A stretch of DNA of 64,000 bases from Candidatus Micrarchaeia archaeon (GTDB lineage Archaea > Micrarchaeota > Micrarchaeia > Anstonellales > Bilamarchaeaceae). Both the position numbers and the translations under genes were made by a program. The DNA lies in assembly GCA_041653635.1 (NCBI GenBank), contig JBAZFC010000001.1:902969-966968 (forward strand), read 5' to 3'. Positions 18,313 to 43,556 of the stretch are shown piece by piece. Within the stretch, counting starts at the first letter, position 1. The number at the start of each line of letters is the position of its first letter. The notes under the pieces were generated by a model that saw only the letters and a list, made by a program, of their open reading frames with translations, ran no database searches and was not told the origin of the DNA.

Positions 18313-18316
18313 ATAA

Positions 18317-18499: not shown

Positions 18500-18639
18500 G
18501 CGCCTATTTCCGCAAAAAGGAATTAAAAGGGAACGCGCGCCCGCGTTCGGAAAGCGGCAAAAGGCACGAGAGCGGCTAATTTCATTTAAAAGTGTTTTCG
18601 TTTAAAGAAGAACGCTTTTGATTTTGGGTGGGTGTTCTG

Positions 18640-23027: not shown

Positions 23028-23078
23028 AAAAGTAAAGAAAAATTAAAAATAAGGGGGGAAACCCTGCTCAGGGTTTCC
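23028..23078 (-). terminator. hairpin plus T-tract terminator-like element after the beta-helix surface protein gene
   Basis: Minus strand GGAAACCCTGAGCAGGGTTTCC (9-10 bp stem overlapping the stop codon), followed by CCCCTTATTTTTAATTTTTCTTTACTTTT. Confidence 0.5.
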
Positions 23079-26613: not shown

Positions 26614-26677
26614 GTGCAAAAATACAAAGATAAAATTTATAAAGAGGAATGTGGTTGATTTGGCAAGAGGGGATGAC

Positions 26678-27208
26678 ATGAAAATCTTGATTGCTTTGTT
26701 GGCTTTGGGAATTTTGCTGTTCGGCTGTGCACAGCAGCCGGAAACCGCGGCACCTGGGACCGGGGGCGCCACTGGCGGAAGCGGCGGCGCAGGCGGAAGC
26801 ACCGGGGGCAGCGGAGGGCAGGTCGTTGATGTCGGCGAAACTACCGGCGGAACGGGAGGCGGAAGCACCGGCTCCGGGGAAACCGGCGGCGGGGAAACCG
26901 GAACAGGCGGCAGCGGAGGCGGAATCATAGGGGTTGAGACGCCCGCCAGCGAGGGCGACGTTACCGTTTACATAAGGGATTTCCAGTTCGTGCCGGAAAC
27001 CGTGACCGTGAAGCAGGGGAGCACCGTCTTCTGGGTTAACGAGGACAACGTGCCGCACGCGGTCAGGATGATTGGCGTGATAGACTCGCCTTACCTCGCG
27101 AAGGACGGCGCGCCTTTCTGGCACACCTTCACCGAGAGGCCGGGAACCTACGAGTATTCCTGCAGCATACACCTGTCCATGCACGGGACAGTGATTGTGA
27201 CGGAATGA
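26678..27208 (+). CDS. blue-copper (amicyanin/plastocyanin-like cupredoxin) lipoprotein
   Basis: Lipobox 'LLFGCAQQ', a Gly/Ser/Thr linker, and a cupredoxin domain with ligand pattern 'VPHAV' ... 'YSCSIHLSM' (C-x2-H-x2-M). GAGGGG lies 6 nt before the ATG. Confidence 0.75.
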   Translation: MKILIALLALGILLFGCAQQPETAAPGTGGATGGSGGAGGSTGGSGGQVVDVGETTGGTGGGSTGSGETGGGETGTGGSGGGIIGVETPASEGDVTVYIRDFQFVPETVTVKQGSTVFWVNEDNVPHAVRMIGVIDSPYLAKDGAPFWHTFTERPGTYEYSCSIHLSMHGTVIVTE

Positions 27209-27212
27209 GAAG

Positions 27213-27446
27213 ATGGCAATTCCGCTAGGCTATGTACCGGCGTTCGGGTTCCCGATTGTATTCTGGACGGGCATCCTCGCCGGGCTTTTCATTTTTGCCG
27301 CGGGGACGGTGATGACACTCACTTTCCACACCAAATATAAATTCCCGGTTGATGTGCACCACAAGCTCGCATTCATCGGGCTTGCGCTGGCTATTATACA
27401 TATAATATTGGGGCTTTCCATTTACGTGTTCCCAATCTACGTTTAA
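27213..27446 (+). CDS. small 2-TM His-containing membrane protein coupled to the cupredoxin gene
   Basis: 77-aa ORF starting 4 nt after the cupredoxin stop. Histidines ('VHHKLAF...AIIHIILG') sit in or near the second TM helix. Confidence 0.5.
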   Translation: MAIPLGYVPAFGFPIVFWTGILAGLFIFAAGTVMTLTFHTKYKFPVDVHHKLAFIGLALAIIHIILGLSIYVFPIYV

Positions 27447-27453
27447 TCCGCAC

Positions 27454-27939
27454 CTATTTCTTCTTTTCCCCGGCGTCCACCTGGTCAGCCCATTGGGAGA
27501 GCCGCAGCTCGCTCCTCGCAATCGCAGCATCGGACTCAAAACCCGCCTCCTCAAGAATTTGCGCGGCGTCCTCAATCTTTCCGGCCCCCTGCGCCATATT
27601 TGCGATGCGCTTCGCGCACAACGCCCATCCCGGCTCACCGGTCGCCTTGTACAATGCGATTATGACGCGGGCCGCCTTCAGGATGTTGCTTTCCCCTTCC
27701 GCGCCCTTGGCATCCTCCGGCGCCGTGAGAAGTATTCTTGCCATCCTCAACGCCGCGGTCTGCCTCCCGGCCTCCGCGTATTTTACGCCAGCGTTGGCTA
27801 AGTCGCATATTTCCGCATATGCCATGGCCATGCCCCATTCCCTGGTGCGGCGTATCGCCTCGGCAAAGCCGTATTTCGGCTTGGGGCATCCGCCGAGCAT
27901 TTCCGCCACGGCTGCGGCTGAAATATGTCTGGATTTCAT
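27454..27939 (-). CDS. hypothetical all-helical protein
   Basis: 161-aa Ala-rich ORF with no recognised motif. It is the last gene of the minus-strand trio 28362->27454. Confidence 0.45.
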   Translation of the reverse strand: MKSRHISAAAVAEMLGGCPKPKYGFAEAIRRTREWGMAMAYAEICDLANAGVKYAEAGRQTAALRMARILLTAPEDAKGAEGESNILKAARVIIALYKATGEPGWALCAKRIANMAQGAGKIEDAAQILEEAGFESDAAIARSELRLSQWADQVDAGEKKK

Positions 27940-27986
27940 GGTAGGTCACCTGTAATATTATATGTGGCAAAACAAATAAAAATGAG

Positions 27987-28145
27987 TTAGTGCCTCAGCT
28001 TGAGCCAGCGCGCCACTTCCTCCTTTTTCTGCACGCACTGCGCGCAGAACGCATGCGTCATCCCGTCCACGTCGGTACGCTTGGAGGCCTCGCTATGCAC
28101 GATTCCGGCATCGCACAATGCGCATTTTTCCTGCCCTTCAAACAT
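27987..28145 (-). CDS. 52-aa zinc-ribbon protein (paralogue A)
   Basis: MFEGQEKCALCDAGIVHSEASKRTDVDGMTHAFCAQCVQKKEEVARWLKLRH, with CxxC...CxxC. AGGTG lies ~5 nt before the ATG. The ORF-track entry 27987-28283 is an upstream extension. Confidence 0.5.
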   Translation of the reverse strand: MFEGQEKCALCDAGIVHSEASKRTDVDGMTHAFCAQCVQKKEEVARWLKLRH

Positions 28146-28203
28146 AACGCCACCTGTTATGTATGATATGCAAGAGGGAATAAAAAGGGCGTGCAATGCG
28201 TGC

Positions 28204-28362
28204 CTAATCCTTCGTCCCGAGCTTCCTCGCCACTTCTTCGGCATTGCCCGCGCAGCGCTCGCAGAATGAGTAAGCCACTCCATCCAGCCCGGTCCTCCTC
28301 TTCACGGCGCAGTCGGACAGGTCCTTCCTGCACAGCGCGCAATTCTCTTTCAGATGCAACAT
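28204..28362 (-). CDS. 52-aa zinc-ribbon protein (paralogue B)
   Basis: Hand-translated as MLHLKENCALCRKDLSDCAVKRRTGLDGVAYSFCERCAGNAEEVARKLGTKD. It aligns without gaps to paralogue A (19/52 identical by my count). Not in the ORF track because it is under 60 aa. Confidence 0.5.
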   Translation of the reverse strand: MLHLKENCALCRKDLSDCAVKRRTGLDGVAYSFCERCAGNAEEVARKLGTKD

Positions 28363-28496
28363 TCAAACGCCTCTTCCAGTTTTCCGCATCCGGCAACCGG
28401 CACCCGGTTCCCGGCAATCCTTTGCGGAACAGCTCCACACATAGAAGAAAGCAAATAAAAAGGTGGAGGAATGAAGGTATTTGGAACGGGGATGCT

Positions 28497-28814
28497 ATGG
28501 CGGGAAAAATTGCTGGTGGGGCAGGAAGCGGTGCGCCTTCTTATTCTCCATCCGACATAAGCCGCCTGGAAAAATCCGCGCTGGACCGGGCGAACAAGGC
28601 GGTCTCCGCGATAGAGAACGCAATCGCATTGTGGGAGGCGTCCCCGCAGAAGCCGCAGGACATAGGGCTCAGGGTGGGGCGGCTCGTGCATTTCTACGGA
28701 GAAATAACCAAGTGGGAGAGGAAGATGCTGAAATCCGCGGGAAGGAAGCGTGACATGTTGGCGAGGATAGCTCTCCTCCGGGAGTTCAGCGACATCTGCC
28801 ACGCGTCGGCATAG
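28497..28814 (+). CDS. small helical protein immediately upstream of the giant ORF
   Basis: 105 aa from MAGKIAGG, taken as the first plausible Met not overlapping the divergent genes. It ends 12 nt before the 1559-aa ORF. Confidence 0.4.
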   Translation: MAGKIAGGAGSGAPSYSPSDISRLEKSALDRANKAVSAIENAIALWEASPQKPQDIGLRVGRLVHFYGEITKWERKMLKSAGRKRDMLARIALLREFSDICHASA

Positions 28815-28826
28815 GGGAATGGAAAC

Positions 28827-31800
28827 ATGGCAAGGCCAGCACAGCGGGGGAGGGAAGAGGTTCCTGAGGCCCAGCGTGCGGAGGAGGCGGCAAACGAATT
28901 CCTGAGGCAGGGCGCAGAGCAGCACGCGCCCGTATCCCCGCAGGTGCTGGGGCAGCTGGAGAGCGCGGAGGAAACATTGCGCTCCGCGCTGCTCGTCGCG
29001 GGGGAAATAGACCGGACATTAGGGCTCTCTCCGGAGCAGGCGGGCTCGCGGCTCGGGGAATATATGGAAAGGATGCGCGGCGCGCTGGAAGAATTCGCGC
29101 AGGCGCAGGTAGGGGGCGTGGAGGGAAGGTTCGGCCAGCCCGCGCAGCAGATTCTTGGGGAACTGGAAAACGCGGAGAGGATGCTCGCGGGCGGGGATTC
29201 CTCCGGGGCGCAGGCCGCTTTTGACAATGCGCAGATGCACCTTGAGCAGCTCGCAGAGGTTGTGTCCCGCGCAAGGGGGCTTTTCGCCTCAGGCGCGCCG
29301 CCTGCGATTGCGGACGCGATGGATTCCGCCGCCTCGTTCTTCATGCAGGGGGACGCGATGCGCGCAAGGATTCTTTTGGACGCCGCGGACGCGTTCCTCC
29401 GCAACAGGGATTTCCTTCTCAGCTCGGTTGGCGATTATTACCTTTCCACACTCTCGGATTTCGCGGGCGCAGTTGCGGATGCGCGTGAAGGCGTGGAGCA
29501 CGAGGCCGCCGCTGCGGGGCTTGCGGGCTTTGAGGCGAATTTGAAGGAGGATTGGGGAAGGATTTCCGGCATAATAGCGGAATGCACGGTGCTCATGGAA
29601 AGCGGGCCTGGGAGAGCTTCGGAGGAGGGGAGCGCAAAATGGCTCGCGGGGAAGGCGATGGACGCGCTCCGTGAAGGGAATGTGGAAGTGGCCGCGCTCG
29701 CATACTCGCTTGCGCGCATGGAGGCGGATGCGAAGGGGCTGGACAGAAGGAAGGGCGCGGAGGATTATATAGATAATTATGCTGATGCGCTGCGCGCCGT
29801 GAAGGAGGGTGCGGAGCCGGAGGAGCTTGTGCGGCTTGCCTCGGATGTGCACGGAGGGGCGCTGCGGATTGAGGCGGAGAAGCTTGCGGCAGGGTATTCT
29901 GCACGCGAGGGGGCCTCAGCCGCGGAGAATGAGAGGAGGGAACGTATTTCAGCCGCCGCGGATATTGTGGCGATGAGGGTTTCTGAAGGGGATTTGCAGG
30001 GGGCGGAGCGCCTCCTTTACATGGCAACGCAGTACGCGAAGGCGCTGGATTCCACTCCCCATGCATGGAGGACCGGGCTGGAGAACTCGCTTGAGATGGA
30101 GAATGCGATTGATGCGGAGAGGATAAGCGGCACGGACTCGCTCGCCCAATTCGGGGGGGCGCTGTTGCTCCAGGATGCGGCTACGCAGGCGTCCGCGCTT
30201 CGGGCATCATTGGCTGGGGCAGGATGGGGCGAAGCGGTTGCGCACCAAACTGAAATGGTTTTCGGTGCGCTGCGCTCAGTGGAGGCACTGGCAGCCGAAG
30301 GGAAGGGTGAGGAGGCCGCCGCGCTGCTCGCGCTCTCCGCGCTATATGTGAATGCGGTGGGAAGCATTGCCCGGAGAGATGCGGGGTCGAAGATAACCTC
30401 GCTGGATGCGCGGTTTGATTCGTCGCAGATGGAGGATGCGCTTCTTGGTTTTGCGGAACCGGGTGCGGACCTGGATTCCCTCTCTTCGCTTTTCGTACAG
30501 GGCTATTCCGCCAGCGAGCGGCTCGCGGTGGAGATGCAGGCCGAGGCGCTGTACGCACTTACGGAAGGGCGCTCGCTGGGGAGGGACACCGTGGGGAAGG
30601 CGCTGGAGATTGCACAGCAGCGCGCCTCGCAGGGCGACCTTGAGGGCGCGCGCCTGCTGATGGGATACGTGGAGGATTATTACGGGATCGCAGGGGCGGT
30701 GGAAACCGGCAGGATGCTGGAAAATGGAAACCCGGAACTGGAAACCGTGGAAGCGGGCTGGAGGTATTCGCAATTCTCCGGCGAGAATACGCCCATCCCC
30801 GGCTACGCTTCAGGGATGCAGGACATGCTGGATTGCATGAGGTGGGAAATCGCAATTACCGAGGGAAGAAGGGAGGACACCTCCGAATCCCACCGCGAGG
30901 CTCAGGGGATTTTCCTGCGCGGGGCCCAGAGGATTGCGGACACCGGGCGGCTGATGTCCGCATTTTCCGAATACAAGGATTTGTATTTCAGCGAGCAGCC
31001 GGACGTTTCCAGCGTGGAATTCCGTACCGGCGTGCATGCGATGCGCCTGCGGGAGGCCGGGGGGATTCCATCCGCCGCGGTGGAGGCGCCAGTTGCAACC
31101 GTGGAGGTTTCCGCAGCCGGGCCGTCCATACGGTTCGCGGACGTGCGCGCATACGATTTGGCGCACCATGGGGAGGACGAGGCGCTGAGGGGAAGCCCCA
31201 CGCTGGAGCAGCTGCTCGCGAACTGCGAGGCCGCCGCGCTAAGCGGGAACGTGGATGCATACAATGAGGCAAAGGGTGCGCTGGAGGAACAATTCGGGCT
31301 GGTTGCCGAACGCCTCGTAAGGGCCAGGAACATAGAGAATTCAATTGCGCAGCTTAACCTCGCAGGGGAGGGGCTTGGAAGCATAATCAAATCATATTAT
31401 GATTCGCTGGAGGGAAGCGAACTAACGGACGCGGAAAAGGAAACCGTGAGGCATTCGGCGCAGCAGAAGGCAATGGAGCTGGACGGGAGGAGGCAGGAGC
31501 TCTCGCTCCGCCTCGGCGGGATGCTCTACTCGCTGGACGACTACCTGGATGCGTCCTCTGCCGCGCTCTCCGATTATGCGGAATTCCTGAAGGATTTCAA
31601 GGTGGAGAGGGACAACGCCGCCGCGATAATGACCGGCGCTTCCTTCCTCACCGCGCAGATGCAGGAGCTGGAAAATTATGCGAAGACGCTCACGCCCACC
31701 GCAGCGCCGCCGCAGGCGCGGGAGGCGCTCTCCCAATCAAGGGAATTCCTGGAGGACGCGCTGAAGGCGCTGGTGCAGGGCAACCTTCCGCTCGCGCAGA

Positions 31801-33506
31801 GGGCGTACGCGGCCTCGGTCGGGCACAGGATTCTGGCGATGGAGGGCTATATGCTCGGCGGGAGCGGCGAGGTCTCCGCTTCCGAGCAGGAGCGCGGCTT
31901 CACGCAGGGGGAATGGGGGGAGTTCTCGGATTATTTCAAATTGCAGAAGGATGCGTTCGCGCTTGCGATTTCCTCCCCGGACCAGAGGGGCGAGATAGAG
32001 TGGAGGCAGAAGGCAACCGGGCTGGTGGAGCTCGCGGTGTTCGGCATACCTATGCATGAATTGAGCCAGTCGCTCGCTGATTTCAATTCTTCGCAGAGGG
32101 AGGTGCTCGGGCTTGTTTCCGAGCTTGCGAAGCCGGAGAACTCGCTATTCGTGGGGCAGAACCTGTCCGATGCGGAGCGGATGATAGAGGAGATGCAGGG
32201 GCGCGTGGAGGACAATAGGTTCTGGTTCCATGCAGGGATTACCGCGGGCGGCACGGTTGTGGGCTTCATCCCCGTGGTCGGGCCGACGCTCACCACCATA
32301 ATATTCACAAGCACGGCGATAGATTCTGTGGTCACGGAATACGAGGCGACGGGCCAGGTCTCTGCGCAGAACTGGTGGAACCTCGGGCTCATGATTGGCA
32401 CGGGCATGCTCGGGGCCGCATCGCAGATGCTCCGCACCGCGCAGATGGAGGCGATGGAAATCGGGGCGCTCGCAAGCGCGCGCAGCATAGGGCGCGTTGC
32501 GACAGGTGTCAATATTGCGAGCCTTGGGGTTGGCGGGTATTTCATGGTGGATATGAGCATCGCCGCCTCGGAACAGTTCGCTGCAGGAAATGCACGCGAG
32601 GCCGTCATTAGTTTAGGGATGGCGCTCATGCCCGCGGTGCACCTAGGGAGCGCCGCTGGGGGTTTTGTTGCCGCGCGCGAGATGCGGGCAGAACAGAGGG
32701 CTGCACGCGAGCAGGCGGCCCGCATGGCTGTCGCATCCGCGCTTGAGCTCATAGAAAGAAGGCGGCCCGCGGAGATAAGTATCAGGGAGGTTACGCGGGC
32801 CCTGGAGGAGAGGGTCCGGCCCCCTGCGCGGGAAGAGGCGGCAACACGCGAAGCCGGGGCTGGAGCGGCTGCCGCGCGCACCGTGGAAACCGAAGGCAGG
32901 GCGCCAGGCGCAGAAGCCGCCCTCGCCACAGGAACAGCGAATACCGGCACCGCATACAGGATGCAACAGGGCCGCGCAGGCGCGCACATGGACGTGGAAC
33001 AGATTGATTCAACGCTGCGCAGAATGGTGACCACCAGCACAACCACGGAGGAGAGGGCTGCGGCGCTGGACTCTTTCGCGAGGCTTTCCCCGGAGGAGCA
33101 GGCGCTTTTCATCTCAGGGCTCCACGAGGAGAGGAGGAATGCTGAGATAGCCTACCTCACCGAATTCGCGGCGCTCAACTCGGAAGTGGGCCGTGCAATC
33201 GAAAGCGCATATGCCGGGCAACTTGGGAAATATGCCGACGTGGGGCCCGGCGTGCTCAGCGACATATACATACAGGCGGGCTCCCTCCAGCAGGCGAGGC
33301 AGTACCTCGCCCAAGCGCTTGGGATAGAGCTCGTGCCGTACAGCAGAATGCTCGTAAACGAGTACGTGGGCTTCAGGACGCTCGCGGATGACGGCTTCCT
33401 TTTCGGCATGCTCACCTCCGGGGACATGCTTGGCGCAATAAGGGAGATGCATCCCGGCGGCAGGGTGACATCCATAGAATTCATAACTGCCTCGGTGGGC
33501 GCATAG
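28827..33506 (+). CDS. giant (1559 aa) Ala-rich alpha-helical protein with C-proximal 4-TM block
   Basis: Uninterrupted 4.7-kb ORF. About 1150 aa are Ala/Glu/Leu/Arg-rich helical sequence. Four hydrophobic segments follow ('FHAGITAGGTVVGFIPVVGPTLTTIIF','WWNLGLMIGTGMLGAA','VNIASLGVGGYFMV','VISLGMALMPAVHLGSAAGGFVAA'), then a ~270-aa tail. Confidence 0.8.
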   Translation: MARPAQRGREEVPEAQRAEEAANEFLRQGAEQHAPVSPQVLGQLESAEETLRSALLVAGEIDRTLGLSPEQAGSRLGEYMERMRGALEEFAQAQVGGVEGRFGQPAQQILGELENAERMLAGGDSSGAQAAFDNAQMHLEQLAEVVSRARGLFASGAPPAIADAMDSAASFFMQGDAMRARILLDAADAFLRNRDFLLSSVGDYYLSTLSDFAGAVADAREGVEHEAAAAGLAGFEANLKEDWGRISGIIAECTVLMESGPGRASEEGSAKWLAGKAMDALREGNVEVAALAYSLARMEADAKGLDRRKGAEDYIDNYADALRAVKEGAEPEELVRLASDVHGGALRIEAEKLAAGYSAREGASAAENERRERISAAADIVAMRVSEGDLQGAERLLYMATQYAKALDSTPHAWRTGLENSLEMENAIDAERISGTDSLAQFGGALLLQDAATQASALRASLAGAGWGEAVAHQTEMVFGALRSVEALAAEGKGEEAAALLALSALYVNAVGSIARRDAGSKITSLDARFDSSQMEDALLGFAEPGADLDSLSSLFVQGYSASERLAVEMQAEALYALTEGRSLGRDTVGKALEIAQQRASQGDLEGARLLMGYVEDYYGIAGAVETGRMLENGNPELETVEAGWRYSQFSGENTPIPGYASGMQDMLDCMRWEIAITEGRREDTSESHREAQGIFLRGAQRIADTGRLMSAFSEYKDLYFSEQPDVSSVEFRTGVHAMRLREAGGIPSAAVEAPVATVEVSAAGPSIRFADVRAYDLAHHGEDEALRGSPTLEQLLANCEAAALSGNVDAYNEAKGALEEQFGLVAERLVRARNIENSIAQLNLAGEGLGSIIKSYYDSLEGSELTDAEKETVRHSAQQKAMELDGRRQELSLRLGGMLYSLDDYLDASSAALSDYAEFLKDFKVERDNAAAIMTGASFLTAQMQELENYAKTLTPTAAPPQAREALSQSREFLEDALKALVQGNLPLAQRAYAASVGHRILAMEGYMLGGSGEVSASEQERGFTQGEWGEFSDYFKLQKDAFALAISSPDQRGEIEWRQKATGLVELAVFGIPMHELSQSLADFNSSQREVLGLVSELAKPENSLFVGQNLSDAERMIEEMQGRVEDNRFWFHAGITAGGTVVGFIPVVGPTLTTIIFTSTAIDSVVTEYEATGQVSAQNWWNLGLMIGTGMLGAASQMLRTAQMEAMEIGALASARSIGRVATGVNIASLGVGGYFMVDMSIAASEQFAAGNAREAVISLGMALMPAVHLGSAAGGFVAAREMRAEQRAAREQAARMAVASALELIERRRPAEISIREVTRALEERVRPPAREEAATREAGAGAAAARTVETEGRAPGAEAALATGTANTGTAYRMQQGRAGAHMDVEQIDSTLRRMVTTSTTTEERAAALDSFARLSPEEQALFISGLHEERRNAEIAYLTEFAALNSEVGRAIESAYAGQLGKYADVGPGVLSDIYIQAGSLQQARQYLAQALGIELVPYSRMLVNEYVGFRTLADDGFLFGMLTSGDMLGAIREMHPGGRVTSIEFITASVGA

Positions 33507-33515
33507 AGGATAAGG

Positions 33516-35135
33516 GTGGAAGGGCCGGACGGGGTTGCGCACGACGTTTACGCGAAGAGGCAGGAGCTCATGCCAGACCACAGAGCAGATGCCGAAAGCA
33601 ACAGGTCCGGGATACCTGCGCCCCCAGTGATAACCACCAGGATGGGCGGGGAGTCGCTCCAGTACATGCAGCCGGACGGCACGCTGTCCGCGTACGGGAT
33701 AATGGATGACATACTGGAGTACCACGGGGTGCTGCCCATGGCCGGCAGGAACGTGGAGGTGCGGGCGATAGGGGGCAGCAGCGTGAGGGACTTTGAATTC
33801 AGCCCGGAATTCACAGAAATGCTGGCCACGGATCCGCAGAGGTTCTGGGAGGAATACGGGTTCGCGATGGCCGGCTCGTATTTCATGGGCGTCGGAGACA
33901 GGCATGCGCGCAACGTGTTCCTGCTCAAGCTGGAGCTCGTAAACCCGTCTGCGGGGGACCTTGCGGCGCTCGGATATGAACTCAGGACGGGGCCCGCAGG
34001 GGAGAGGCGGCTTGTGCAGGCCTCCGAATTCCCCGCCCGACACCTGGAGATGGACGCCGAAGGGAGGATAACCATGACCTCCTTCGCCAACATAGACATA
34101 GACTCGGCGGGTTCGTACCTCGCCAGCCGGAGGCCGGACGGCAGCTTTGACTTCTCTGCCATGAATGAAGACTATGGAAAGGATGCCGTGCACAAATTCT
34201 TCGTGAGGCTCACCAGGAATGTGAACATACACGAGGCGGCGCTTGCGGCCTCGGAGGGAAGGGAACCGCAGTTCGTTGCCGTGGAAGATGTAGTGCGGCA
34301 GGCATTCGGGCAGCCGGGCAGAGGGCCGCTTTTCAACGGAATACTTCAATGGTTCACGGAATTCGGGAGGGAAAGCGAGTATGTTGATGCGCTTGCAGCC
34401 ATGTTCGGCGAGAGTGCGGGTCAGCACGCAGGCCTGGGCATCCCCATGCTGGAGCCGGAGATGGCAAGGTTCAGGGAGAACGGCTACTCATACCGCCCCG
34501 AACCGATGAATGGGGACCCGATTACGCTGATAGAATTCTCCGATGGCAGGCAGGTGATGCGGCCGAGGTATGAATATGCTGCATCCTACCCGGAAGAATT
34601 CAATGGCGTGTTCCCGCAGGGCAGGAAGGTCTATGTGGCGCCCGTGCCTGCGGATTTCCCTGGCGCGGTTGGATTCGGGGCAAATACTGCGTTCGCAGTA
34701 TTCGGGTCCGCGGCAGAAATTCCCCCGGAGCTTGCCGGAAGCGCGGTGGAGGCAATAAGGTTCGGAAGCGCGATAAGGGCGGGCGTTGGCTTCGGGGAAA
34801 TCACCGGCCAGTCCACGACTGAATGCGGGCAGCTGCCGGCGCTGCAATCTCTCGCTGAGGGTGGCGGCCCCGCAATGGTAAGAAGCTGGATCAGGATAGG
34901 AGAACTCATAATCAGGACGGAACGCGAGGAGCGCACGCTTGCGGAAGCCGCGGCTTCGGATGGCGACACATCTGCCCTGGACACTTATACTTCGGAAAGG
35001 TACCCGCCTGGCGCGGCAACGCAGCCGCGGCCTAGGGAACAGGCACCGCGTGCAGAAGAAGAATCGCCATCTTCATCAGAAGAAGCCACTAGGGAAGAGG
35101 CAACGCGGGAAGAAGCAACGAGGCCCGAAATCTAA
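33516..35135 (+). CDS. PI3K/PI4K-like (atypical) kinase-domain protein
   Basis: GTG start 6 nt after a GAGGA that overlaps the giant ORF's stop. 'FMGVGDRHARNVFLL' matches the PI3/PI4-kinase catalytic loop G-x-GDRH-x-x-N. 'FANIDIDSAG' sits in the DFG-equivalent position. The C-terminal tail carries a tandem 'EEATR' repeat. Confidence 0.55.
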   Translation: MEGPDGVAHDVYAKRQELMPDHRADAESNRSGIPAPPVITTRMGGESLQYMQPDGTLSAYGIMDDILEYHGVLPMAGRNVEVRAIGGSSVRDFEFSPEFTEMLATDPQRFWEEYGFAMAGSYFMGVGDRHARNVFLLKLELVNPSAGDLAALGYELRTGPAGERRLVQASEFPARHLEMDAEGRITMTSFANIDIDSAGSYLASRRPDGSFDFSAMNEDYGKDAVHKFFVRLTRNVNIHEAALAASEGREPQFVAVEDVVRQAFGQPGRGPLFNGILQWFTEFGRESEYVDALAAMFGESAGQHAGLGIPMLEPEMARFRENGYSYRPEPMNGDPITLIEFSDGRQVMRPRYEYAASYPEEFNGVFPQGRKVYVAPVPADFPGAVGFGANTAFAVFGSAAEIPPELAGSAVEAIRFGSAIRAGVGFGEITGQSTTECGQLPALQSLAEGGGPAMVRSWIRIGELIIRTEREERTLAEAAASDGDTSALDTYTSERYPPGAATQPRPREQAPRAEEESPSSSEEATREEATREEATRPEI

Positions 35136-35164
35136 GTGCCATGGGGCAAAAAGGAATTTGTGGT

Positions 35165-35785
35165 TCAATGCACCGTTTCAAGCCTTGCCATGGAGGAATG
35201 GCCGGTTTCACGGTCGCATACTGCGATGAGGCCGTTTCCCGCCGCGGCACTGGCCCCCGCCCGCCTCAGCGCCACTTCAATCGCAGTCTTTATGACCGCC
35301 CAGCCCTGCCTGCCGTCCCCTCTGTATTCCTGCACGATTCCCCGCACCACTATCCTGCGCCTGGCGTCAAAAAGCAGGAAGTGCGTCGCGCTGGCGCTGT
35401 CATAAACCATGAAGCCGTATTCCATCCCGGTGGAGAAGGACTTGCCGCCAGCCCTGAGGCCCTGGAAAATGGCGCCCATATCCGTGTTATCCGTACTGCA
35501 GTATTGCAAATATGGCCCGGGCAGGTAGAATAACTTATCCGGGACGCCAAGGAGGCGCTCCAGGTCCGCGTCCCATCCTGTGCCCATTGATTTGAGGAAA
35601 TTGATTGCTTCGGAAGCAGGCACCTCTTTAGGATTTGGGATAGTTTTGTCCTGCGGGGGTGTGCGGGCCTCCATCAACTTACGGTATGCCTCGGTCTTGT
35701 AATAAGGAACGCTCTTGCCGCCGTTCCCATTCTTGGGGTCGGAATTGTGGTTTCCTGCAGCAGCGTTCGGGCCCATCCTTATCAT
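35165..35785 (-). CDS. hypothetical protein with possible Cys-His-Asp (transglutaminase/papain-like) core
   Basis: 206 aa. 'YCSTDNTDMGAIFQGLRAGGKS....GFMVYDSASATHFLLFDA' resembles the transglutaminase-like C...H..D arrangement. This is a weak call made by eye. Confidence 0.4.
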   Translation of the reverse strand: MIRMGPNAAAGNHNSDPKNGNGGKSVPYYKTEAYRKLMEARTPPQDKTIPNPKEVPASEAINFLKSMGTGWDADLERLLGVPDKLFYLPGPYLQYCSTDNTDMGAIFQGLRAGGKSFSTGMEYGFMVYDSASATHFLLFDARRRIVVRGIVQEYRGDGRQGWAVIKTAIEVALRRAGASAAAGNGLIAVCDRETGHSSMARLETVH

Positions 35786-35837
35786 GGTGTTAATTCCGCA
35801 TGAAAAGTATTAAAACCCGCCACACCAACAGTTACGC

Positions 35838-36320
35838 ATGAAGCTCCCATCCTCATTGGGGAAGATGAAGGCGGGCTCGCTCCCGCGCTCATTCTACGGC
35901 GAGCTGGAGGAATTCTTCTCTTCTTTGAAGCCGGGCACCACGATAACGGGCAGAACCAGTTTGCTCACGATATGCAGGCGCCTGCAGGACGCGAAAACGG
36001 GGAAGGTCTCCGCGAAGCGGCTGAAGGACGCGGAGAGGATGATAAAAGCGCTATGCGCGGCCGCGGAAATAAGGGGGCTGCAATACGGGAAGGTGGCGCA
36101 GCGGGAGGCTCCGGCACCGGGCAGCCGCATTGCACCTGAAAGGCATCCCATTCCCGAGGGAATTGTAAAAGCCGGGCCCGCCTCCGTGCCGAGGGAAATC
36201 CTTGAGCAGAGGAAGAGGGTTGCGGACGCCGCGGAGAAGGCGGGAATACTTCCCCCGGACCTTGATTACAGGAATACAGACCTGAGGCACATGGCAAAAC
36301 GGCTGGGGCTGGAAAAATGA
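35838..36320 (+). CDS. hypothetical protein, translationally coupled to the HicB-like gene
   Basis: 160-aa ORF whose stop overlaps the hicB-like ATG (ATGA). No HicA-like motif seen. Confidence 0.4.
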   Translation: MKLPSSLGKMKAGSLPRSFYGELEEFFSSLKPGTTITGRTSLLTICRRLQDAKTGKVSAKRLKDAERMIKALCAAAEIRGLQYGKVAQREAPAPGSRIAPERHPIPEGIVKAGPASVPREILEQRKRVADAAEKAGILPPDLDYRNTDLRHMAKRLGLEK

Positions 36321-36580
36321 GCAGGATGCGCGTGGAGGGATACGACGTCGTGGTGGTGTCCGAGGGCGGAATCTTTACCGCTTACGTGCCCAAGCTTCCT
36401 GGATGCGCGGCCCGCTGCAAGGCGGAGGAAAGGGAACACCTCGCCTTCCTTGTCGCGAGGGCGATAGCAAATCATCTAATCTCCGCAATAGTGTCCAGGC
36501 AGGAGAGGGAACTGCTGCCTCCTGCGATGAGGCGGGATGAGAAACTCAACATTGAGCCGCCGAAGGAAGAGGAACCATAA
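36317..36580 (+). CDS. hicB: HicB-family (UPF0150) antitoxin-like protein
   Basis: 'YDVVVVSEGGIFTAYVPKLPGCAARCKAEEREHLAFLVARAI' matches the HicB N-terminal pattern (....GG.....P.LPGC...G.T.EEA......AI). Confidence 0.6.
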   Translation: MSRMRVEGYDVVVVSEGGIFTAYVPKLPGCAARCKAEEREHLAFLVARAIANHLISAIVSRQERELLPPAMRRDEKLNIEPPKEEEP

Positions 36581-36634
36581 CCCCGCGCAAACCCTTTTAT
36601 TCCTTATTTACCAATCTGGCTGCAGGTGGAATGA

Positions 36635-37618
36635 ATGTCTGAAACCTTAGTGATAGAAGAGGCGCTGGTGAAGGAAATCCTCCAGATGAAGGACGTAATC
36701 CCCGCGGTTGAGACCGCATTCAGGGAGAGGGGGCACGGCAACGTGGAGATGCCGCCGAAGATGTACATAATGTACCCGACCGGGGATTTGAGGGTGATGC
36801 CAGCATATTTGAAAAATCTTAAGCAGAGCGGGCTGAAGGCGGTTACCGTTTTTCCGAATAATCCTAAGGAGAAGAACATCCCGACAGTTCTTGCGACCGT
36901 AATCCTGGTGGATGTGGACAGCGGTGTGCCGCTCGCGGTGATGGGCGGCTCATGGCTCACCGCGATGAGGACGGGCGCGGCGGGCGCAATCGCGACCAAG
37001 CACCTCGCGAAAAAGGGCGCGAAGAACATCGCGTTCGTAGGGACCGGGATGCAGGCGCACACCCAGCTGATGGCGCACAAGGAGGTCATGAAGATAGAGA
37101 AGGTCTATGCGGTGGATGCGAACGCGGCGAGCGCGGAAAAATTCGTGGAGTTCGCGAAATCGCTGGGGTTCCAGGCGGAGGTTGCGAACGGTGCGAAGGC
37201 GTGCGCGGATTCGGATGTGCTCATCACCACCACGCCGGTGCACCAGCCGATAGTGAAGAAGGAGTGGATACACCCCGGGATGCACATAAACGCAATCGGG
37301 GCGGACGCGCCTGGAAAGGAGGAGCTGGAACCGGAAATCCTCACGCAGGCAAAGGTCGTAATAGACGACTGGGAGCAGGCGTCCCACTCCGGCGAGATAA
37401 ACGTCCCTGTTTCAAAGAAGATGATTTCCAGGGAAAACATCGCCGCGGAGCTCGGGGATATCGTTGCTGGGAAGAAAACCGCCCGCACAAGCGACGCGGA
37501 TGTTACAGTATTTGACTCCACCGGGCTTGGGATTCAGGACATCGTCACTGCAACAATAGTGTTGGAAAAGGCGAAGGCGCAGAACAAGGGGATTAAAGTA
37601 AAACTGGCGACGCTCTAG
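36635..37618 (+). CDS. ornithine cyclodeaminase/mu-crystallin family enzyme (archaeal alanine dehydrogenase-like)
   Basis: 'GDLRVMPAY', 'WLTAMRTGAAGAIATKHLA', 'IAFVGTGMQA' and 'INAIGADAPGKEEL' are OCD/mu-crystallin motifs. Confidence 0.85.
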   Translation: MSETLVIEEALVKEILQMKDVIPAVETAFRERGHGNVEMPPKMYIMYPTGDLRVMPAYLKNLKQSGLKAVTVFPNNPKEKNIPTVLATVILVDVDSGVPLAVMGGSWLTAMRTGAAGAIATKHLAKKGAKNIAFVGTGMQAHTQLMAHKEVMKIEKVYAVDANAASAEKFVEFAKSLGFQAEVANGAKACADSDVLITTTPVHQPIVKKEWIHPGMHINAIGADAPGKEELEPEILTQAKVVIDDWEQASHSGEINVPVSKKMISRENIAAELGDIVAGKKTARTSDADVTVFDSTGLGIQDIVTATIVLEKAKAQNKGIKVKLATL

Positions 37619-38181
37619 GCGCTCAGCTTTTCCGCCTTTGAGATGCCTTGCGCAAGCATGGAGTGGCCGGGGTAAAGGCTGGCACTCTCTGCCAGCACCT
37701 GCTCCGCGCCAGCAACGCACCCCAGCATGAAATGGGGATGCCTGCCGGAATTCACATCGCTTGCGATATCCCTCAGTTTTATTAGGGGCACCTGCAGCAC
37801 GAACAGGTGGCATTCGCGGCCGTTGCCGCATGCGGGCGCGTAGCATTCCGAAACCTGGTCCTTGGAGGCCTTCAGCCCGAGCTGCGAAATGGATATGCGT
37901 CGCAGCGATTCAAGCGGATTTTCCCCATCCTCCACTATCCCAGACGGGCCCAGCGCCTTTCCGCCCTGCTTTTTGTAGAGCAGGAGGAATTTGGGCTTCC
38001 CTGAATCATAGGACATCACTACGAGAGAGCAGGCGGGAAGGGCCATCTCCCGGGCGAGGGTGAGAGATTCCATCTGCCTCTGCTTCCTTGCGAGGATTTG
38101 CAAGAAGGACGACCGGGCGTTCCTGAGCCGCAGCTCCTCCAGGATTGGCCTTTCGGTGCTGGTCGGTTTTGGTTCCGGCAT
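37615..38181 (-). CDS. hypothetical protein with degenerate Nudix-like box
   Basis: 'GGKALGPSGIVEDGENPLESLRRISISQLGL' fits G-x5-E-x7 of the Nudix box but lacks REx2EE. It is the last gene of the minus-strand run IPK -> 38853-38236 -> this ORF. The ORF is open to 38223. Confidence 0.35.
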   Translation of the reverse strand: MPEPKPTSTERPILEELRLRNARSSFLQILARKQRQMESLTLAREMALPACSLVVMSYDSGKPKFLLLYKKQGGKALGPSGIVEDGENPLESLRRISISQLGLKASKDQVSECYAPACGNGRECHLFVLQVPLIKLRDIASDVNSGRHPHFMLGCVAGAEQVLAESASLYPGHSMLAQGISKAEKLSA

Positions 38182-38235
38182 ATGGAAGATGATTTGTGTT
38201 AAAAAGTTTATAAAACAGTGCATTATGGTGCAGGA

Positions 38236-38853
38236 TTAGTGCACTGGGAGAAGCTCAACTTGCACAAGCGGGCTGCCGCTTTCGCGCGATGACGCAGCCG
38301 CCAGGAAAACGCCGATGCTTGTTATGCTAATATATGCCTGCTTGGAATGGATGAGCATGCCCATGACGGCATTTGGCACGCGGTAATCCCCTAAGAGTGC
38401 CCTTATCTTCTCCTCCGAGGCGGCCATCATGGTCGCGTCCGGTCTGCCGCGCTTCACTGCGTCCGTATCCGGCACTTCGCCGTACCAGCCGAGGTCCTCC
38501 AGGAATATGCGCACTTCGCCCCTTTCCGATATCTTTGCAATCACATCAACCCTCCCATCCCGTGCAAGCAGGATTCTATCGCCAACAATCTGTAATTGCA
38601 GCAACGGGTCGGCAGCGGCAATCGCGTTAAGGGCGTTGCATATCCTCAGCATCAGCGCATTTGATACTCCGGTCACACGCACAAGCACCCCGTCCGGAGC
38701 CGGCTTCGGGCCTGAGGATGCCTGCGTGGTTGGGATTGGTGTCGGCGTGTTATTCTTTGCCCTTGCCGCAGGAGTGGGCGGCGGACGCGCGGCCTGCTTA
38801 TAGCCAGCAGGAGGGGGCGGCGGGCCCCTGCGTGCGCCATTATCATCAGCCAT
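38236..38853 (-). CDS. hypothetical protein with Pro-rich N-terminus
   Basis: 205-aa ORF, 35 nt downstream of the IPK gene. No recognised motif. Confidence 0.45.
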   Translation of the reverse strand: MADDNGARRGPPPPPAGYKQAARPPPTPAARAKNNTPTPIPTTQASSGPKPAPDGVLVRVTGVSNALMLRICNALNAIAAADPLLQLQIVGDRILLARDGRVDVIAKISERGEVRIFLEDLGWYGEVPDTDAVKRGRPDATMMAASEEKIRALLGDYRVPNAVMGMLIHSKQAYISITSIGVFLAAASSRESGSPLVQVELLPVH

Positions 38854-38888
38854 ACGGCAATAATATGGGAAAGAGTGTTTTTAACTGT

Positions 38889-39641
38889 TTAGTCCACAAG
38901 CGTGCAAATCGCCTTCTCGCCCTTGAGGAGTTTCTCTATCCGCTCCGGGTGCAAGGCATTGGCGATGTAGGCCGGCTTCCCGATTTTGAGCAGCTCCTCC
39001 AGCTTGCCGCGCATCCCGCCGGTCACGTCGGCGGTTTCCGCGCCCTTCACGTGGGTGAATATTCTTTGGATATTTCCCTGGTTTATTTCCGGGACGATTT
39101 TTCCGTCCGCCATTATCCCATCAATATTTGTGCCGAGGATTACCCTCTCCGCTTCCTTCCCAAAATATGAAACCAATTGGTCGCCGGAGCAGACCGCCCC
39201 CCCCTTTTTTTCGTCAAGCATCATGTCCCCGTGCAGCACCGGAAGGAAGCCGAAGGAAAGGAGGGAGAAAACTACTCCGGAATTGAGTTCGCTTATCCTT
39301 CCGTTGGATAATTTCCCGATGGAGGCGGGGGGCACTGCAACCGCAGGAACGCCGTTCTCCAGCAACGCATCCACCACCGCCTGGGAAAGCCGCGTGCATG
39401 CGGCATGCGTGAGCGCCATCCCTTCCTTCTGGGCGTCGGTCCGCACGCCTGCATCCAACTTGTATTTGAGCACCAGGGGGTGCCCGAAGGAGCCCGCGCC
39501 ATGGATCAGGATGAAGTCGCGGATTCCGCCCTTCCACGCACCTCCGAGCATCCGCGCCAGCGCATCTATGTTCTTCTGGTCCAGCTCCATGTACCCGTTC
39601 TTTTTTGTGAGCACGGAACCGCCCAGTTTCAGGACCTGCAT
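38889..39641 (-). CDS. isopentenyl phosphate kinase (amino-acid-kinase fold)
   Basis: 'VLKLGGSVLT', 'ILIHGAGSFGH', 'GDMM' and 'DVTGGM' with ~250-aa length match IPK. It lies divergent from the ubiX/ubiD/acnX genes. Confidence 0.8.
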   Translation of the reverse strand: MQVLKLGGSVLTKKNGYMELDQKNIDALARMLGGAWKGGIRDFILIHGAGSFGHPLVLKYKLDAGVRTDAQKEGMALTHAACTRLSQAVVDALLENGVPAVAVPPASIGKLSNGRISELNSGVVFSLLSFGFLPVLHGDMMLDEKKGGAVCSGDQLVSYFGKEAERVILGTNIDGIMADGKIVPEINQGNIQRIFTHVKGAETADVTGGMRGKLEELLKIGKPAYIANALHPERIEKLLKGEKAICTLVD

Positions 39642-39692
39642 AAGAAGAATACATAAGGGAAGGTTAAAAAAGAAGGGCTAACGAATTCAATT

Positions 39693-40229
39693 ATGCGCAT
39701 AGTGGTCGCGATAAGCGGCGCCTCGGGCACCACGTATGGGGTGCGGCTTGTGGAGGCGCTGAAAAGGCTCGGGCACACCGTTTTCGTAGTGATAAGCGGG
39801 CCCGCCAGGAAAGTCGCAAAATATGAGGGCGTGAAATTGCCCAAAGCAGATTTTAAGGAGAGCGAGATTGATGCCCCGTTTGCATCCGGCTCCAATTCGC
39901 CGGATGTGATGATTATTGCACCCTGCTCTTTGAAGACGCTGGGGAATGTGGCGAACGGCACGGGGAGCGGATTGATTGACCGTGCCGCTGAAGTAATGCT
40001 CAAGGAGAGGAAAAAACTCATATTATTGGTTCGGGAGACGCCCCTTTCGCTCGTTGCGATTGAGAATATGGCGAAGGCATCGCTCGCTGGCGCCATAATA
40101 ATGCCCGCGGCCCCCGGCTTTTATGCAAAACATAAGGACGTTTCACAATTAGTTGATTTTATGGTCGGGAAGGTGCTGGACCAGGCGGGAGTGAAACATA
40201 ACCTGTACAAAAGATGGAGAGGGAAGTGA
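39693..40229 (+). CDS. ubiX: flavin prenyltransferase UbiX
   Basis: 'MRIVVAISGASG..YGVRL', 'APCSLKTLGNVANG' and 'RKKLILLVRETPLS' are UbiX/Pad1 motifs. Confidence 0.9.
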   Translation: MRIVVAISGASGTTYGVRLVEALKRLGHTVFVVISGPARKVAKYEGVKLPKADFKESEIDAPFASGSNSPDVMIIAPCSLKTLGNVANGTGSGLIDRAAEVMLKERKKLILLVRETPLSLVAIENMAKASLAGAIIMPAAPGFYAKHKDVSQLVDFMVGKVLDQAGVKHNLYKRWRGK

Positions 40230-40233
40230 TATT

Positions 40234-41523
40234 ATGAAAGGTTCTTTTCGCGATTTTGTAAAGGAATTGGAGGAGAAAAAGCAGCTTCTGCGCCTTAAGA
40301 AGAAGGTCTCCAAGAACCTTGAGCTTGCGGCGGTCATGAAAGCCAAGGAGGATACGCCTATATTTGCGCCGGAAGTCGGCGGTGCGGAATTCTCCGCGGT
40401 TGGGAATGTGTTTGCGACGAGGGAATTGGTTGCACAGTACCTTGGGTGTAGGGTGGATGAGATAACACGTAAATTGGCCGATGCAATCAACCATCCATCA
40501 AAGCCAAAATCCGCAAAAACATCGCCCGCGCTTGAAACCACTGTTTCCTCTCTGGATAAACTTCCCATTCCTTACCATACCGAGAAGGATGGCGGGCCTT
40601 ACATCTGCTCCGGAATAGTGATTGCGAAGGACAAGGAATACGGAACCAACTGCTCCTTCCATCGGATGATGCAATTGAATGGGGATAGGATGGTTTTGCG
40701 CATACTTCCCAGGCATCTGGACGCATTCCTGGAAAGGGCTGGGGGGGCGCTGGATGTGGCGGTCATTATCGGTTCTCCAATAAATGTGATGCTTGCTTCC
40801 GCCGTATCCACCAAGATTGGGACGAATGAATTGGAAATAGCAAATTCCCTTGCGCCATTTGAGACCGTGAAATTGGAAAACGGAATAGAGGTGCCTGCGG
40901 ATGTGGAATTCATCTTTGAGGCGAGGATTACGAAGGAATTGGTGAACGAGGGGCCGTTTGTTGATTTGACGGACACTTACGACATTGTGCGCAGGCAGCA
41001 CGTAATGGAAGTGAAGAAAATACATGCGAGAAAAGATGCGCTCTTCCATGTATTGCTTCCAGGGGGGATGGAACATAAGGTCCTGATGGGGATGCCGCGC
41101 GAGCCCACGATATTTAATGAAGTAAATAAGGTCGTGGAGTGCAAGGGAGTGAGCATCACTCCGGGCGGGTGCTCGTGGCTGCATGGAGTTGTTGCCATTC
41201 ATAAAAAGAGTGAGGAGGATGGAAAAAAGGCGATAGAAGCGGCATTCAAGGGGCACGCGTCCATGAAGCACGTTGTGGTTGTGGATGACGACGTGGATAT
41301 TCACAAAATGGAGGAAGTGGAGTGGGCAATTGCCACCCGCTTCCAGGGGGACCGCGGACTAGTAGTAAAGCCGCATGAGAAGGGCTCTTCTTTGGACCCG
41401 TCCGCAAATCCGGATACAAGAGAAACCACCAAGGTTGGAGTGGACGCTACCGCCCCCCTGAAAAACAGGGCGGCGTTCAACAGGGCGAAATATAAAAAGG
41501 TAAAAATAGAGGACTACCTTTAG
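40234..41523 (+). CDS. UbiD-family decarboxylase (candidate trans-anhydromevalonate-5-phosphate decarboxylase)
   Basis: ~430-aa UbiD-like sequence ('DGGPYICSGIVIAKD','NCSFHRMM','EGPFVDLTDTY'), sandwiched between ubiX and the aconitase-X genes. Confidence 0.8.
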   Translation: MKGSFRDFVKELEEKKQLLRLKKKVSKNLELAAVMKAKEDTPIFAPEVGGAEFSAVGNVFATRELVAQYLGCRVDEITRKLADAINHPSKPKSAKTSPALETTVSSLDKLPIPYHTEKDGGPYICSGIVIAKDKEYGTNCSFHRMMQLNGDRMVLRILPRHLDAFLERAGGALDVAVIIGSPINVMLASAVSTKIGTNELEIANSLAPFETVKLENGIEVPADVEFIFEARITKELVNEGPFVDLTDTYDIVRRQHVMEVKKIHARKDALFHVLLPGGMEHKVLMGMPREPTIFNEVNKVVECKGVSITPGGCSWLHGVVAIHKKSEEDGKKAIEAAFKGHASMKHVVVVDDDVDIHKMEEVEWAIATRFQGDRGLVVKPHEKGSSLDPSANPDTRETTKVGVDATAPLKNRAAFNRAKYKKVKIEDYL

Positions 41524-41574
41524 TCGGCATTAGACGTAGATAGTTATTTATACTCCCCAAGGGGATATCTGCTT

Positions 41575-43178: not shown

Positions 43179-43556
43179 ATGTACCATTACAGGAAGGGCG
43201 CCGGCGCCGAGAGGGAACTCATAAAGATGTTCTCGGACCGCGGCTTCATGGTGGTGCGCGCGGCGGGGAGCGGCGTGAATTCCCTTTCCCCGGATTTGCT
43301 CGCGTTCAAGAGCTCCGCGCACTATGCGATTGAGAGCAAGGCATGGGAGAATGATCGCCTCGCGATAAAGAGGGATCAGTTCGAAAATCTGAAGAAATGG
43401 ACGGAGACGGCGGGGATTACGACTTTTATCGCATGGAGGAGGAACAGGGAGAGATGGGTGTTCATTCCCCTTTCCGTGTTTAAGGAGGCGAAAGAGAGCT
43501 ACACAATCGGATGGGAGGATGCGAAACTGATTGGAAGGGACATCTCCGACCTCTAA
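43179..43556 (+). CDS. hjc: Holliday junction resolvase Hjc
   Basis: 'KGAGAERELIKMFSDRGFMVVRAAGSG....PDLLAF......AIESKA' is the Hjc nuclease motif set. The start abuts the preceding stop. Confidence 0.85.
   Translation: MYHYRKGAGAERELIKMFSDRGFMVVRAAGSGVNSLSPDLLAFKSSAHYAIESKAWENDRLAIKRDQFENLKKWTETAGITTFIAWRRNRERWVFIPLSVFKEAKESYTIGWEDAKLIGRDISDL

Follow-up and report, generated by a model that had tools for sequence, protein, structure and literature searches.

The DNA analysed here (the window) is a 64,000-nucleotide (nt) stretch of contig JBAZFC010000001.1 from a Candidatus Micrarchaeia archaeon, and our subject is an open reading frame (ORF) at 33516..35135 on its plus strand, which encodes 539 amino acids (aa) from a GTG start. 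The original prediction read this ORF as an archaeal protein with a catalytic loop of the phosphatidylinositol 3-kinase/phosphatidylinositol 4-kinase (PI3K/PI4K) type, took 33516 as its start and regarded it as tightly linked to a separate giant membrane protein. The archaeal source was correct: the organism belongs to the Micrarchaeota, tiny symbionts of the DPANN archaea. The gene boundary was not, as the frame continues upstream through a single TAG into an ORF of 1,559 codons (28827..33506, plus strand). The two ORFs share one frame, and only the TAG at 33504..33506 plus three codons lie between them. The 539-aa ORF is thus the severed C-terminal piece, about a third, of that giant protein of 2,102 residues, and it lacks strand beta1 and the Gly-rich loop of the domain to which it belongs. 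With a probability of about 0.7, the giant gene encodes a member of a lineage-restricted new kinase family of the type of PI3Ks and the PI3K-related kinases (PIKKs). The features of the locus are listed below, with motif residues numbered from the GTG at 33516.

28827..35135, plus strand: giant gene of 2,102 codons, made up of two ORFs in one frame, with an intact allele in contig L001 and an end-to-end alignment with the homologue P0001
32220..32675, plus strand: Gly-rich hydrophobic cluster, residues 1132-1283, from a Kyte-Doolittle scan
33024..33380, plus strand: start of the conserved C-terminal module, residues ~1400-1518, upstream of the TAG
33381..34412, plus strand: kinase-like core, residues 1519-1862, spanning the TAG, supported by the model, by Foldseek and by profile matches on both sides of the TAG
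33486..33506, plus strand: Gly-rich loop T-A-S-V-G-A-(Y replaced by stop), between beta1 and beta2 (model strands E52-59 and E65-71)
33504..33506, plus strand: in-frame TAG, codon 1560, at the near-invariant Tyr of the G-x-x-G-A-Y loop
33555..33578, plus strand: beta3 Lys (K14) followed by the rest of K-R-Q-E-L-M-P-D (family consensus K-R-Q-D-L-R-P-D)
33888..33914, plus strand: catalytic loop G125-V-G-D128-R-H130-A-R-N133, conserved, giving the best local hhalign match to the VPS34 catalytic loop
33915..34091, plus strand: family-specific insertion of ~58 aa, one helix and three strands in the model, present throughout the alignment
34092..34103, plus strand: I193-D194-I-D196, counterpart of the (H)IDFG metal-binding motif, following model strand E254-261
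34422..34823, plus strand: conserved post-kinase alpha/beta domain of ~130 residues (ORF residues 303-436), confident in the model, its fold unmatched
34827..34955, plus strand: long C-terminal helix of 43 residues (ORF residues 438-480; model helix H507-549)
35165..35785, minus strand: convergent partner gene of 206 aa, separated from the stop codon of the giant gene by 29 nt

The best homologue (P0001, 2,188 aa) aligned end to end with the giant protein, with 78% identity over 2,048 aligned residues, and is uninterrupted at the junction, where the window reads ITASVGA(stop)RIRVEGPDG against MSGAVGAYRVTVEGPDG in P0001 (VGA(stop)RIRVEG against VGAYRVTVEG). Window positions 26635-42733 are matched at 99.988% identity by a contig of an independent assembly from another sample (L001, Logan SRR18595300), with only two base differences in 16,099 nt, at 33506 (G in the window, C in L001) and at 33508 (G and A, respectively). 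The L001 codon at the TAG site is TAC (Tyr), the second difference gives AGG in the window and AAG in L001, and a single gene of 2,102 aa is called in L001 at the syntenic position. Positions 2-45 of a hidden Markov model (HMM) of the kinase core matched the last 44 residues of the upstream ORF (E 7e-14), and its positions 47-331 matched the 539-aa ORF over the first 302 residues (E 3e-105), so that the TAG occupies position 46. A split ORF can therefore conceal half a catalytic domain, with the Lys and the Gly-rich loop lying at or across the stop codon.

TAG terminates 18 of the 50 long ORFs in the window, including the OCD, UbiD and peptidase C25 genes. Because TAG is an ordinary stop in this genome, recoding of the pyrrolysine type is not the explanation of the junction; readthrough was likewise rejected, as the homologues carry Tyr at this position and L001 has TAC. 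A search for Pyl genes within the 64-kb window did not reveal the Pyl machinery. An exact-pattern scan of JGI metagenomes for the junction allele gave no match. If the TAG is real, the full-length kinase cannot be produced from the window allele.

Conservation of the motifs was counted in an alignment of 35 homologous segments, with denominators of 32-35 by column. The loop GVGDRHARN is encoded exactly where it had been placed (33888..33914), and G125 (33/35), D128 (35/35), H130 (32/35) and N133 (35/35) are conserved, as is G115 further upstream in all 35 segments. Residue 129 is Arg in 19 and Gly in 13 of the 35. G127 was found in the window protein alone, the other members having W, Y or I, so that the family signature is G-x-x-D-(R/G)-H-x-x-N and not the GxGDRHxxN first proposed, of which the D, H and N stand. 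In all six frames of the window GDRHxxN turns up a single time, where 0.015 occurrences were expected; 3 of 200 shuffles contained it at least once. This rarity by itself is suggestive, not decisive; the motif is more than a chance occurrence because it is conserved across the 35 homologous segments.

The segment FANIDIDSAG, proposed as the counterpart of the metal-binding motif, starts at nt 34083, and its I193 (33/34), D194 and D196 (both 34/34) bear out the conservation expected of a DxD motif. D128 and D194 are 66 residues apart, whereas in PI3Ks about 18 residues separate the catalytic Asp from the metal-binding motif. The conserved insertion explains this spacing; its elements in the model are E203-210, H215-220, E223-227, E233-237 and E246-248. 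Upstream, the original prediction could not find a clear VAIK-like Lys, and the residue is K14 in DVYAKRQ (residue 1577 of the full protein; 31/32), which follows the G-x-x-G-A-Y loop straddling the TAG. In this loop the G and A are conserved in 32/33 and the Tyr, at the TAG position, in 29/33. The beta3 Lys is followed by D at +3 (26/32), L or M at +4 (27/32), P at +6 (24/32) and D at +7 (25/32), a pattern to which the window copy K-R-Q-E-L-M-P-D conforms less well than the family consensus K-R-Q-D-L-R-P-D.

The structure was predicted with AlphaFold2 (AF2) for the module of the intact orthologue P0001 (74% identical; 576 residues, 27-row alignment). The model had a pLDDT of 92.2 and a pTM of 0.91, against a pLDDT of 39 for a single-sequence AF2 prediction. 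It shows three N-lobe strands, the third ending in the Lys, then an alphaC-like helix and more strands; a helical segment then leads into the catalytic loop, a strand leads into IDxD, and a long helix and a helical bundle follow. The model has in this the element order of a protein-kinase-like domain. Beyond the C-terminal helix, a low-complexity Glu/Thr/Arg tail extends to 35132.

A Foldseek search of the PDB with this model revealed PI3K/PIKK kinases (DNA-PKcs, ATR, ATM, mTOR, p110delta, VPS34, SMG1 and Tel1) as 49 of the top 50 matches, with a best E of 7.3e-4 for DNA-PKcs (probability 0.98) and a probability of 0.99 for mTOR. The only other protein among the 50 was Rio2 (4gyi) at rank 31. 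Ordinary protein kinases far outnumber PI3K/PIKK structures in the PDB, and their absence from the top 50 therefore suggests a specific PI3K/PIKK-like geometry. Among viral predicted structures (BFVD), the top match was an uncharacterised pithovirus protein (E 8.8e-5), and giant-virus PI3Ks and Ser/Thr kinases came next. On this model, the severed tail is a kinase domain that had not been described before, and the eukaryotic PI3K/PIKK kinases are its closest relatives in structure.

An exhaustive HMMER search of 1.84 billion cluster representatives revealed 35 homologous proteins, and 30 of these matches had E ≤ 1e-10. With few exceptions the match covers the C-terminal part of a protein 2,000-7,300 aa long; of the short ones checked, P0010 is cut at a contig edge and P0021 (720 aa) still has beta1 and the Gly-rich loop. 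All members named at their source are 'hypothetical protein' of Candidatus Micrarchaeota, Micrarchaeia or Bilamarchaeaceae, and we found no description of the family in the literature, one candidate paper (PMC8784108) proving irrelevant. The family appears to be confined to the Micrarchaeia, one class of DPANN archaea, and it is rare: a metagenome scan gave four loci with members, and a scan of viral contigs gave no member. A reference-genome scan with the window protein gave no relatives. One metagenome-assembled genome (MAG), AB1324_, has four members of 6,140, 4,987, 3,396 and >1,954 aa, about 16,500 codons in total, and another, U0R44_, has two that lie seven genes apart. No Pfam domain was found anywhere in two of the giants (4,987 and 4,466 aa). 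Several giants (P0009, P0017 and P0023) have the kinase module inside the polypeptide instead of at its end, and two members carry two copies each in one polypeptide (P0002 at residues 4692-5375 and 5478-6140; P0012 at 106-399 and 1308-1819).

Only P0001 and P0003 share the first ~1,390 residues of the window protein, whereas about 25 proteins share its C-terminal module; phmmer coverage rises at residue ~1400 from 2-3 to 16-25 homologous proteins. The P0003 locus is syntenic with the window and its housekeeping neighbours are conserved, yet the module is only 43% identical, which points to fast evolution. The hydrophobic cluster, probably a membrane anchor judging from its hydropathy, has a like counterpart in P0001 and P0003, whereas a hydropathy scan placed such clusters at other positions in several distant giants and found none in others.

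Two further features of the giant gene were noticed. The window protein has ~126 residues fewer than P0001, in several blocks around residues 1334-1367 (window ~32826-32930), and the absent segments include a small strand-rich stretch and an RGN(I/F)GTA motif that is also found in P0003, P0005 and P0021. As the L001 allele has the same length, this loss is an in-frame deletion at the level of the lineage. The G+C content across the gene (window 28000-34000) is 0.61-0.625, compared with 0.53-0.58 in most of the window, which may reflect either its Ala/Gly/Arg/Glu-rich composition or a foreign origin.

The convergent partner gene belongs to a family of ~190 aa that is present at 8 of 10 evaluable loci; homologues occur in the same position and orientation at L084-L089 and L093 (E 1e-8 to 1e-63). 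The partner had no Pfam or PDB sequence match. From this conserved adjacency, its product is most likely a dedicated binding partner of the giant protein, such as a regulator, an inhibitor or a substrate. The stop codons of the two genes (window 35135-35165; L084, L086-L089) are 0-29 nt apart or overlap by 4 nt at the 3' ends; the transcripts must therefore overlap or terminate within each other, and antisense regulation is possible. At L087 (15057-17393, minus strand, and 17995-20476, plus strand), four further small genes (166-188 aa) stand in a run beside the partner gene of P0011; their products share homology among themselves, though none with the partner, and a second giant gene of >2,082 aa lies after this run.

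The interval 28827..35135 is one gene, whose product has a long, lineage-variable N-terminal region, a putative membrane anchor and a conserved C-terminal module of ~650 residues; we propose that the core of this module is an atypical protein-kinase-like domain of the PI3K/PIKK type. If it works as PI3K/PIKK enzymes do, ATP would be held by the G-x-x-G-A-Y loop together with the beta3 Lys (K14, residue 1577), D128 would act in phosphoryl transfer, and N133 together with D194 of IDxD would bind Mg2+. The near-invariance of the catalytic residues makes it most likely that the domain is active as an ATP-dependent phosphotransferase, with a protein or a lipid as its substrate. The likeness to PI3K/PIKK kinases may reflect either specific common ancestry or mere membership of the wider kinase-like superfamily.

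Several observations weigh against this assignment. The part of the original prediction that named the PI3K/PI4K type stands as regards the nearest structures, but PF00454 did not match the window ORF or 27 family members even at E ≤ 10, and no kinase family of Pfam matched any of the 27 at that threshold. In the absence of a PF00454 match, the PI3K-type assignment depends on structure prediction and motifs and not on a significant profile match. Searches of Pfam, NCBIfam, PHROGs, PADLOC and PDB sequences with the 539-aa ORF gave nothing credible (weak beta-lactamase matches, far below the cut-offs, were disregarded), word-indexed protein searches with the ORF and with the family alignment gave no match, and neither the family profiles nor the full-module profile matched a PDB sequence. 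The model is that of P0001 and not of the window allele; its Foldseek E-values are only about 1e-3, with TM scores of 0.14-0.24 as normalised by the whole 576-residue model, and the likeness was read from scores and not from a residue-level alignment. The metal motif is IDxD instead of DFG, the F-G is absent, and the motif comes 66 rather than ~18 residues after the catalytic Asp, although the I-D-x-D is invariant and follows a strand. As for the partner, its role is drawn from gene adjacency alone, and it is absent at two of the ten loci (L090 and L091).

The family profile was also compared directly with a profile of 24 VPS34 sequences, i.e., class III PI3K only, gathered with a probe that was 99% identical to a database protein. 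The local hhalign score of 22.7 (P 0.04, probability 1.3%) is not significant by the program's own statistics and also counts against the assignment; a column-shuffle null gave 15.1 +/- 2.8, and 1 of 150 shuffles reached the observed score. The top local alignment pairs the family segment EYGFAMAGSYFMGVGDRHARNVF with the VPS34 catalytic loop, and the second pairs DVYAKR-QELMPDHR with VIFKHGDDLRQDQL of VPS34 (the IFKhGDDLRQD region). The two best alignments thus fall on the catalytic loop and the Lys/DLRxD motif, in the correct order and at similar spacing. The signal appears in the right places, yet it is not significant alone. Taken together, the evidence supports a 'PI3K/PIKK-like kinase fold and motif set', short of PF00454 membership.

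The other explanations differ in what they make of the TAG and of the domain. A chance motif in an unrelated protein is effectively refuted: GDRHxxN is a short pattern and Pfam gives no match, but the catalytic loop is accompanied by three other kinase motifs, conserved and collinear, and by a confident model with a kinase fold. That the ORF is a stand-alone 539-aa PI3K/PI4K-like kinase beside, and working with, a separate giant membrane protein, perhaps made by termination and reinitiation, is very improbable. Its GTG lies three codons (9 nt) past the TAG and is preceded by a purine-rich stretch, AGGATAAGG; against this, nearly every homologue has the module as part of a giant protein, the short ones checked are either cut at a contig edge or equipped with beta1 and the Gly-rich loop that the 539-aa piece lacks, and the conserved domain begins ~160 residues upstream of the TAG. 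A recent pseudogene, in which the TAG is real, translation ends at residue 1559 and this strain has lost its kinase module or has a non-functional one, is a possibility that we take seriously while doubting it. The TAG is present in the window as a normal stop, it strips beta1 and the Gly-rich loop from any downstream product, and the lineage of the window and L001 is in addition short of the ~126 residues that P0001 has. The near-identical contig from another sample, however, has TAC at this site, and the 6.3-kb frame is otherwise intact and identical in both assemblies, so that no further decay is visible; a minority variant, or an artefact of assembly or consensus, could also account for two substitutions that lie within 3 nt.

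The chemistry and the role of the kinase domain may also be read differently. The fold could serve another chemistry or none, as a pseudokinase scaffold (an option of the original prediction) or as an AMPylating (SelO-type) or glutamylating (SidJ-type) enzyme. The IDxD with its two invariant Asp residues instead of DFG, the large insertion, the Gly in place of R129 in 13 of 35 segments and the lack of a significant sequence link to active kinase families would fit such a reading, but we consider it distinctly unlikely: the near-invariance of the Lys, Asp, Asn and metal-binding Asp speaks against a pseudokinase, the structures closest to the model are those of genuine kinases, and nothing specific favours an alternative chemistry. 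The giant and its partner might also form a toxin-immunity or effector-chaperone pair in conflict or symbiont-host interaction, with the kinase as the delivered toxic activity and the partner as its neutraliser, as in HipA-HipB or polymorphic toxins. DPANN archaea are host-dependent, the giant gene and its partner are tightly linked, several fast-evolving paralogues occur within a genome (four in one MAG, two in another), the P0003 module has diverged to 43% identity amid conserved housekeeping neighbours, and at L087 four further paralogous small genes stand beside the partner. We nevertheless regard such a pair as unlikely, since the conserved C-terminal module and variable N-terminus are the reverse of polymorphic toxins, the partner is convergent and not co-directional, the searches revealed neither a secretion signal nor a delivery domain or known toxin architecture, PADLOC gave no matches and no member was found on viral contigs. 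A bolder form of the kinase reading is that the giants of the Micrarchaeia (2,000-7,300 aa) are true, deeply diverged PI3K/PIKK relatives with dedicated partners and a symbiont-host role, e.g., phosphorylating inositol lipids or proteins of the host's or their own membrane at the contact site; this we put forward only tentatively, as a speculation less probable than its opposite.

The neighbourhood of the giant gene comprises archaeal housekeeping genes: a class V FBPase that is 94% identical to those of Candidatus Micrarchaeota MAGs and a mevalonate-pathway cluster. This cluster (38889-42786) is compact, of the archaeal type and notable in a reduced DPANN genome; it consists of an isopentenyl phosphate kinase-like gene (IPK, AA_kinase family, minus strand), followed by a UbiX-like flavoprotein, a UbiD-like decarboxylase and AcnX. 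Beyond the partner gene, an 87-aa ORF (36317-36580, plus strand) overlaps by 4 nt the end of a 160-aa ORF (35838-36320), and L001, L002 and the syntenic L086 have it conserved at the equivalent site. Its sequence, which includes VVVVSEGGIFTAYVPKLPGCAA, resembles a HicB-type antitoxin by eye, with only a weak PHROG match. Upstream of the giant gene, the minus strand encodes a protein of 1,286 aa (23068-26928) that has a Cys-rich tail and five repeats of the right-handed beta-helix/NosD-like kind and is adjoined by a small cupredoxin gene (~26714-27208, plus strand) that is called in L001 at 80-574. Elsewhere in the window, the minus strand encodes a peptidase family C25 (gingipain-like) protein (43553-44893) and an S-adenosylmethionine synthetase (6365-7525) of the bacterial/eukaryotic MetK type with three domains (PF00438, PF02772 and PF02773) and not of the archaeal type.

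The family was compared with known kinases and with other giant proteins. Pkinase (PF00069) gave no Pfam match, the motifs are DRH and IDxD rather than HRD, DFG and APE, and ordinary kinases are absent from the Foldseek top 50. RIO kinases share with the family that they are atypical kinase-fold proteins of archaea, and Rio2 appeared among the structural matches; they are, however, small universal ribosome-biogenesis factors with a Pfam family of their own, which no member of the Micrarchaeia family matched. HipA, of the bacterial PI3/4-kinase-like branch, resembles the family in being prokaryotic and in having a small linked partner gene. HipA has a D-x-H-x-x-N catalytic loop (D-G-H-A-K-N) and a G-A-Q-type loop, and the loop of P0021 reads VGAQ. 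In contrast to the giants, HipA is a stand-alone protein of ~440 aa with its antitoxin upstream and co-directional. HipA_C (PF07804) did not match the window ORF or the 27 members at E ≤ 10 and HipA is absent from the Foldseek top 50. The giant proteins of DPANN archaea and the candidate phyla radiation, such as nanohaloarchaeal SPEARE, are likewise very large, lineage-specific, mostly unannotated and a sizeable share of a small genome. Those of the SPEARE type are described as proteins of the cell surface or of adhesion that carry domains of the protease, adhesion or nuclease type, whereas the Micrarchaeia giants have no recognisable domain except the kinase module and no evident signal peptide. 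Giant proteins of nanohaloarchaea are also treated in PMC10266531.

The best structural neighbours are the PI3K/PI4K/PIKK kinases (VPS34, p110, mTOR, ATM, ATR and DNA-PKcs). The Micrarchaeia family differs from them in the missing PF00454 match, the non-significant profile-profile score, the IDxD in place of DFG with a ~45-60-residue insertion before it, and the G-x-x-G-A-Y loop. FAT and FATC gave no Pfam match in the window ORF or the 27 members, and the layout of PIKKs, with FAT before the kinase and a FATC of ~33 residues after it, was not found; instead, the kinase is followed by the ~130-aa alpha/beta domain and the long helix, and the N-terminal regions have no detectable HEAT or FAT domains, many of them having hydrophobic segments. 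The family appears, moreover, to be restricted to the Micrarchaeia. Shared features are the bilobal kinase fold of the model, the catalytic loop G-x-x-D-R-H-x-x-N after a G-Y...Y helix, the beta3 Lys followed by D-L-R-x-D (K-x-G-D-D-L-R-Q-D in PI3K), the I-D-x motif carrying the putative metal-binding Asp and, with PIKKs, a giant protein in which the kinase lies at the C-terminus or close to it. A motif-complete, confidently modelled domain thus defines a family that the profile libraries searched do not recognise, and it offers a first functional foothold on otherwise unannotated giant proteins, together with a conserved two-gene module. DPANN-type genomes are typically ~1 Mb, and the four members in one MAG represent a large investment. 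Kinases of the PI3K/PI4K/PIKK type are regarded as essentially eukaryotic, the outliers being a few bacterial effectors and the HipA toxins; the family adds a data point on the reach of the PI3K-like kinase branch outside eukaryotes. If its members are indeed deeply diverged PI3K/PIKK relatives, archaea would gain their first described kinase system of the PI3K/PIKK type.

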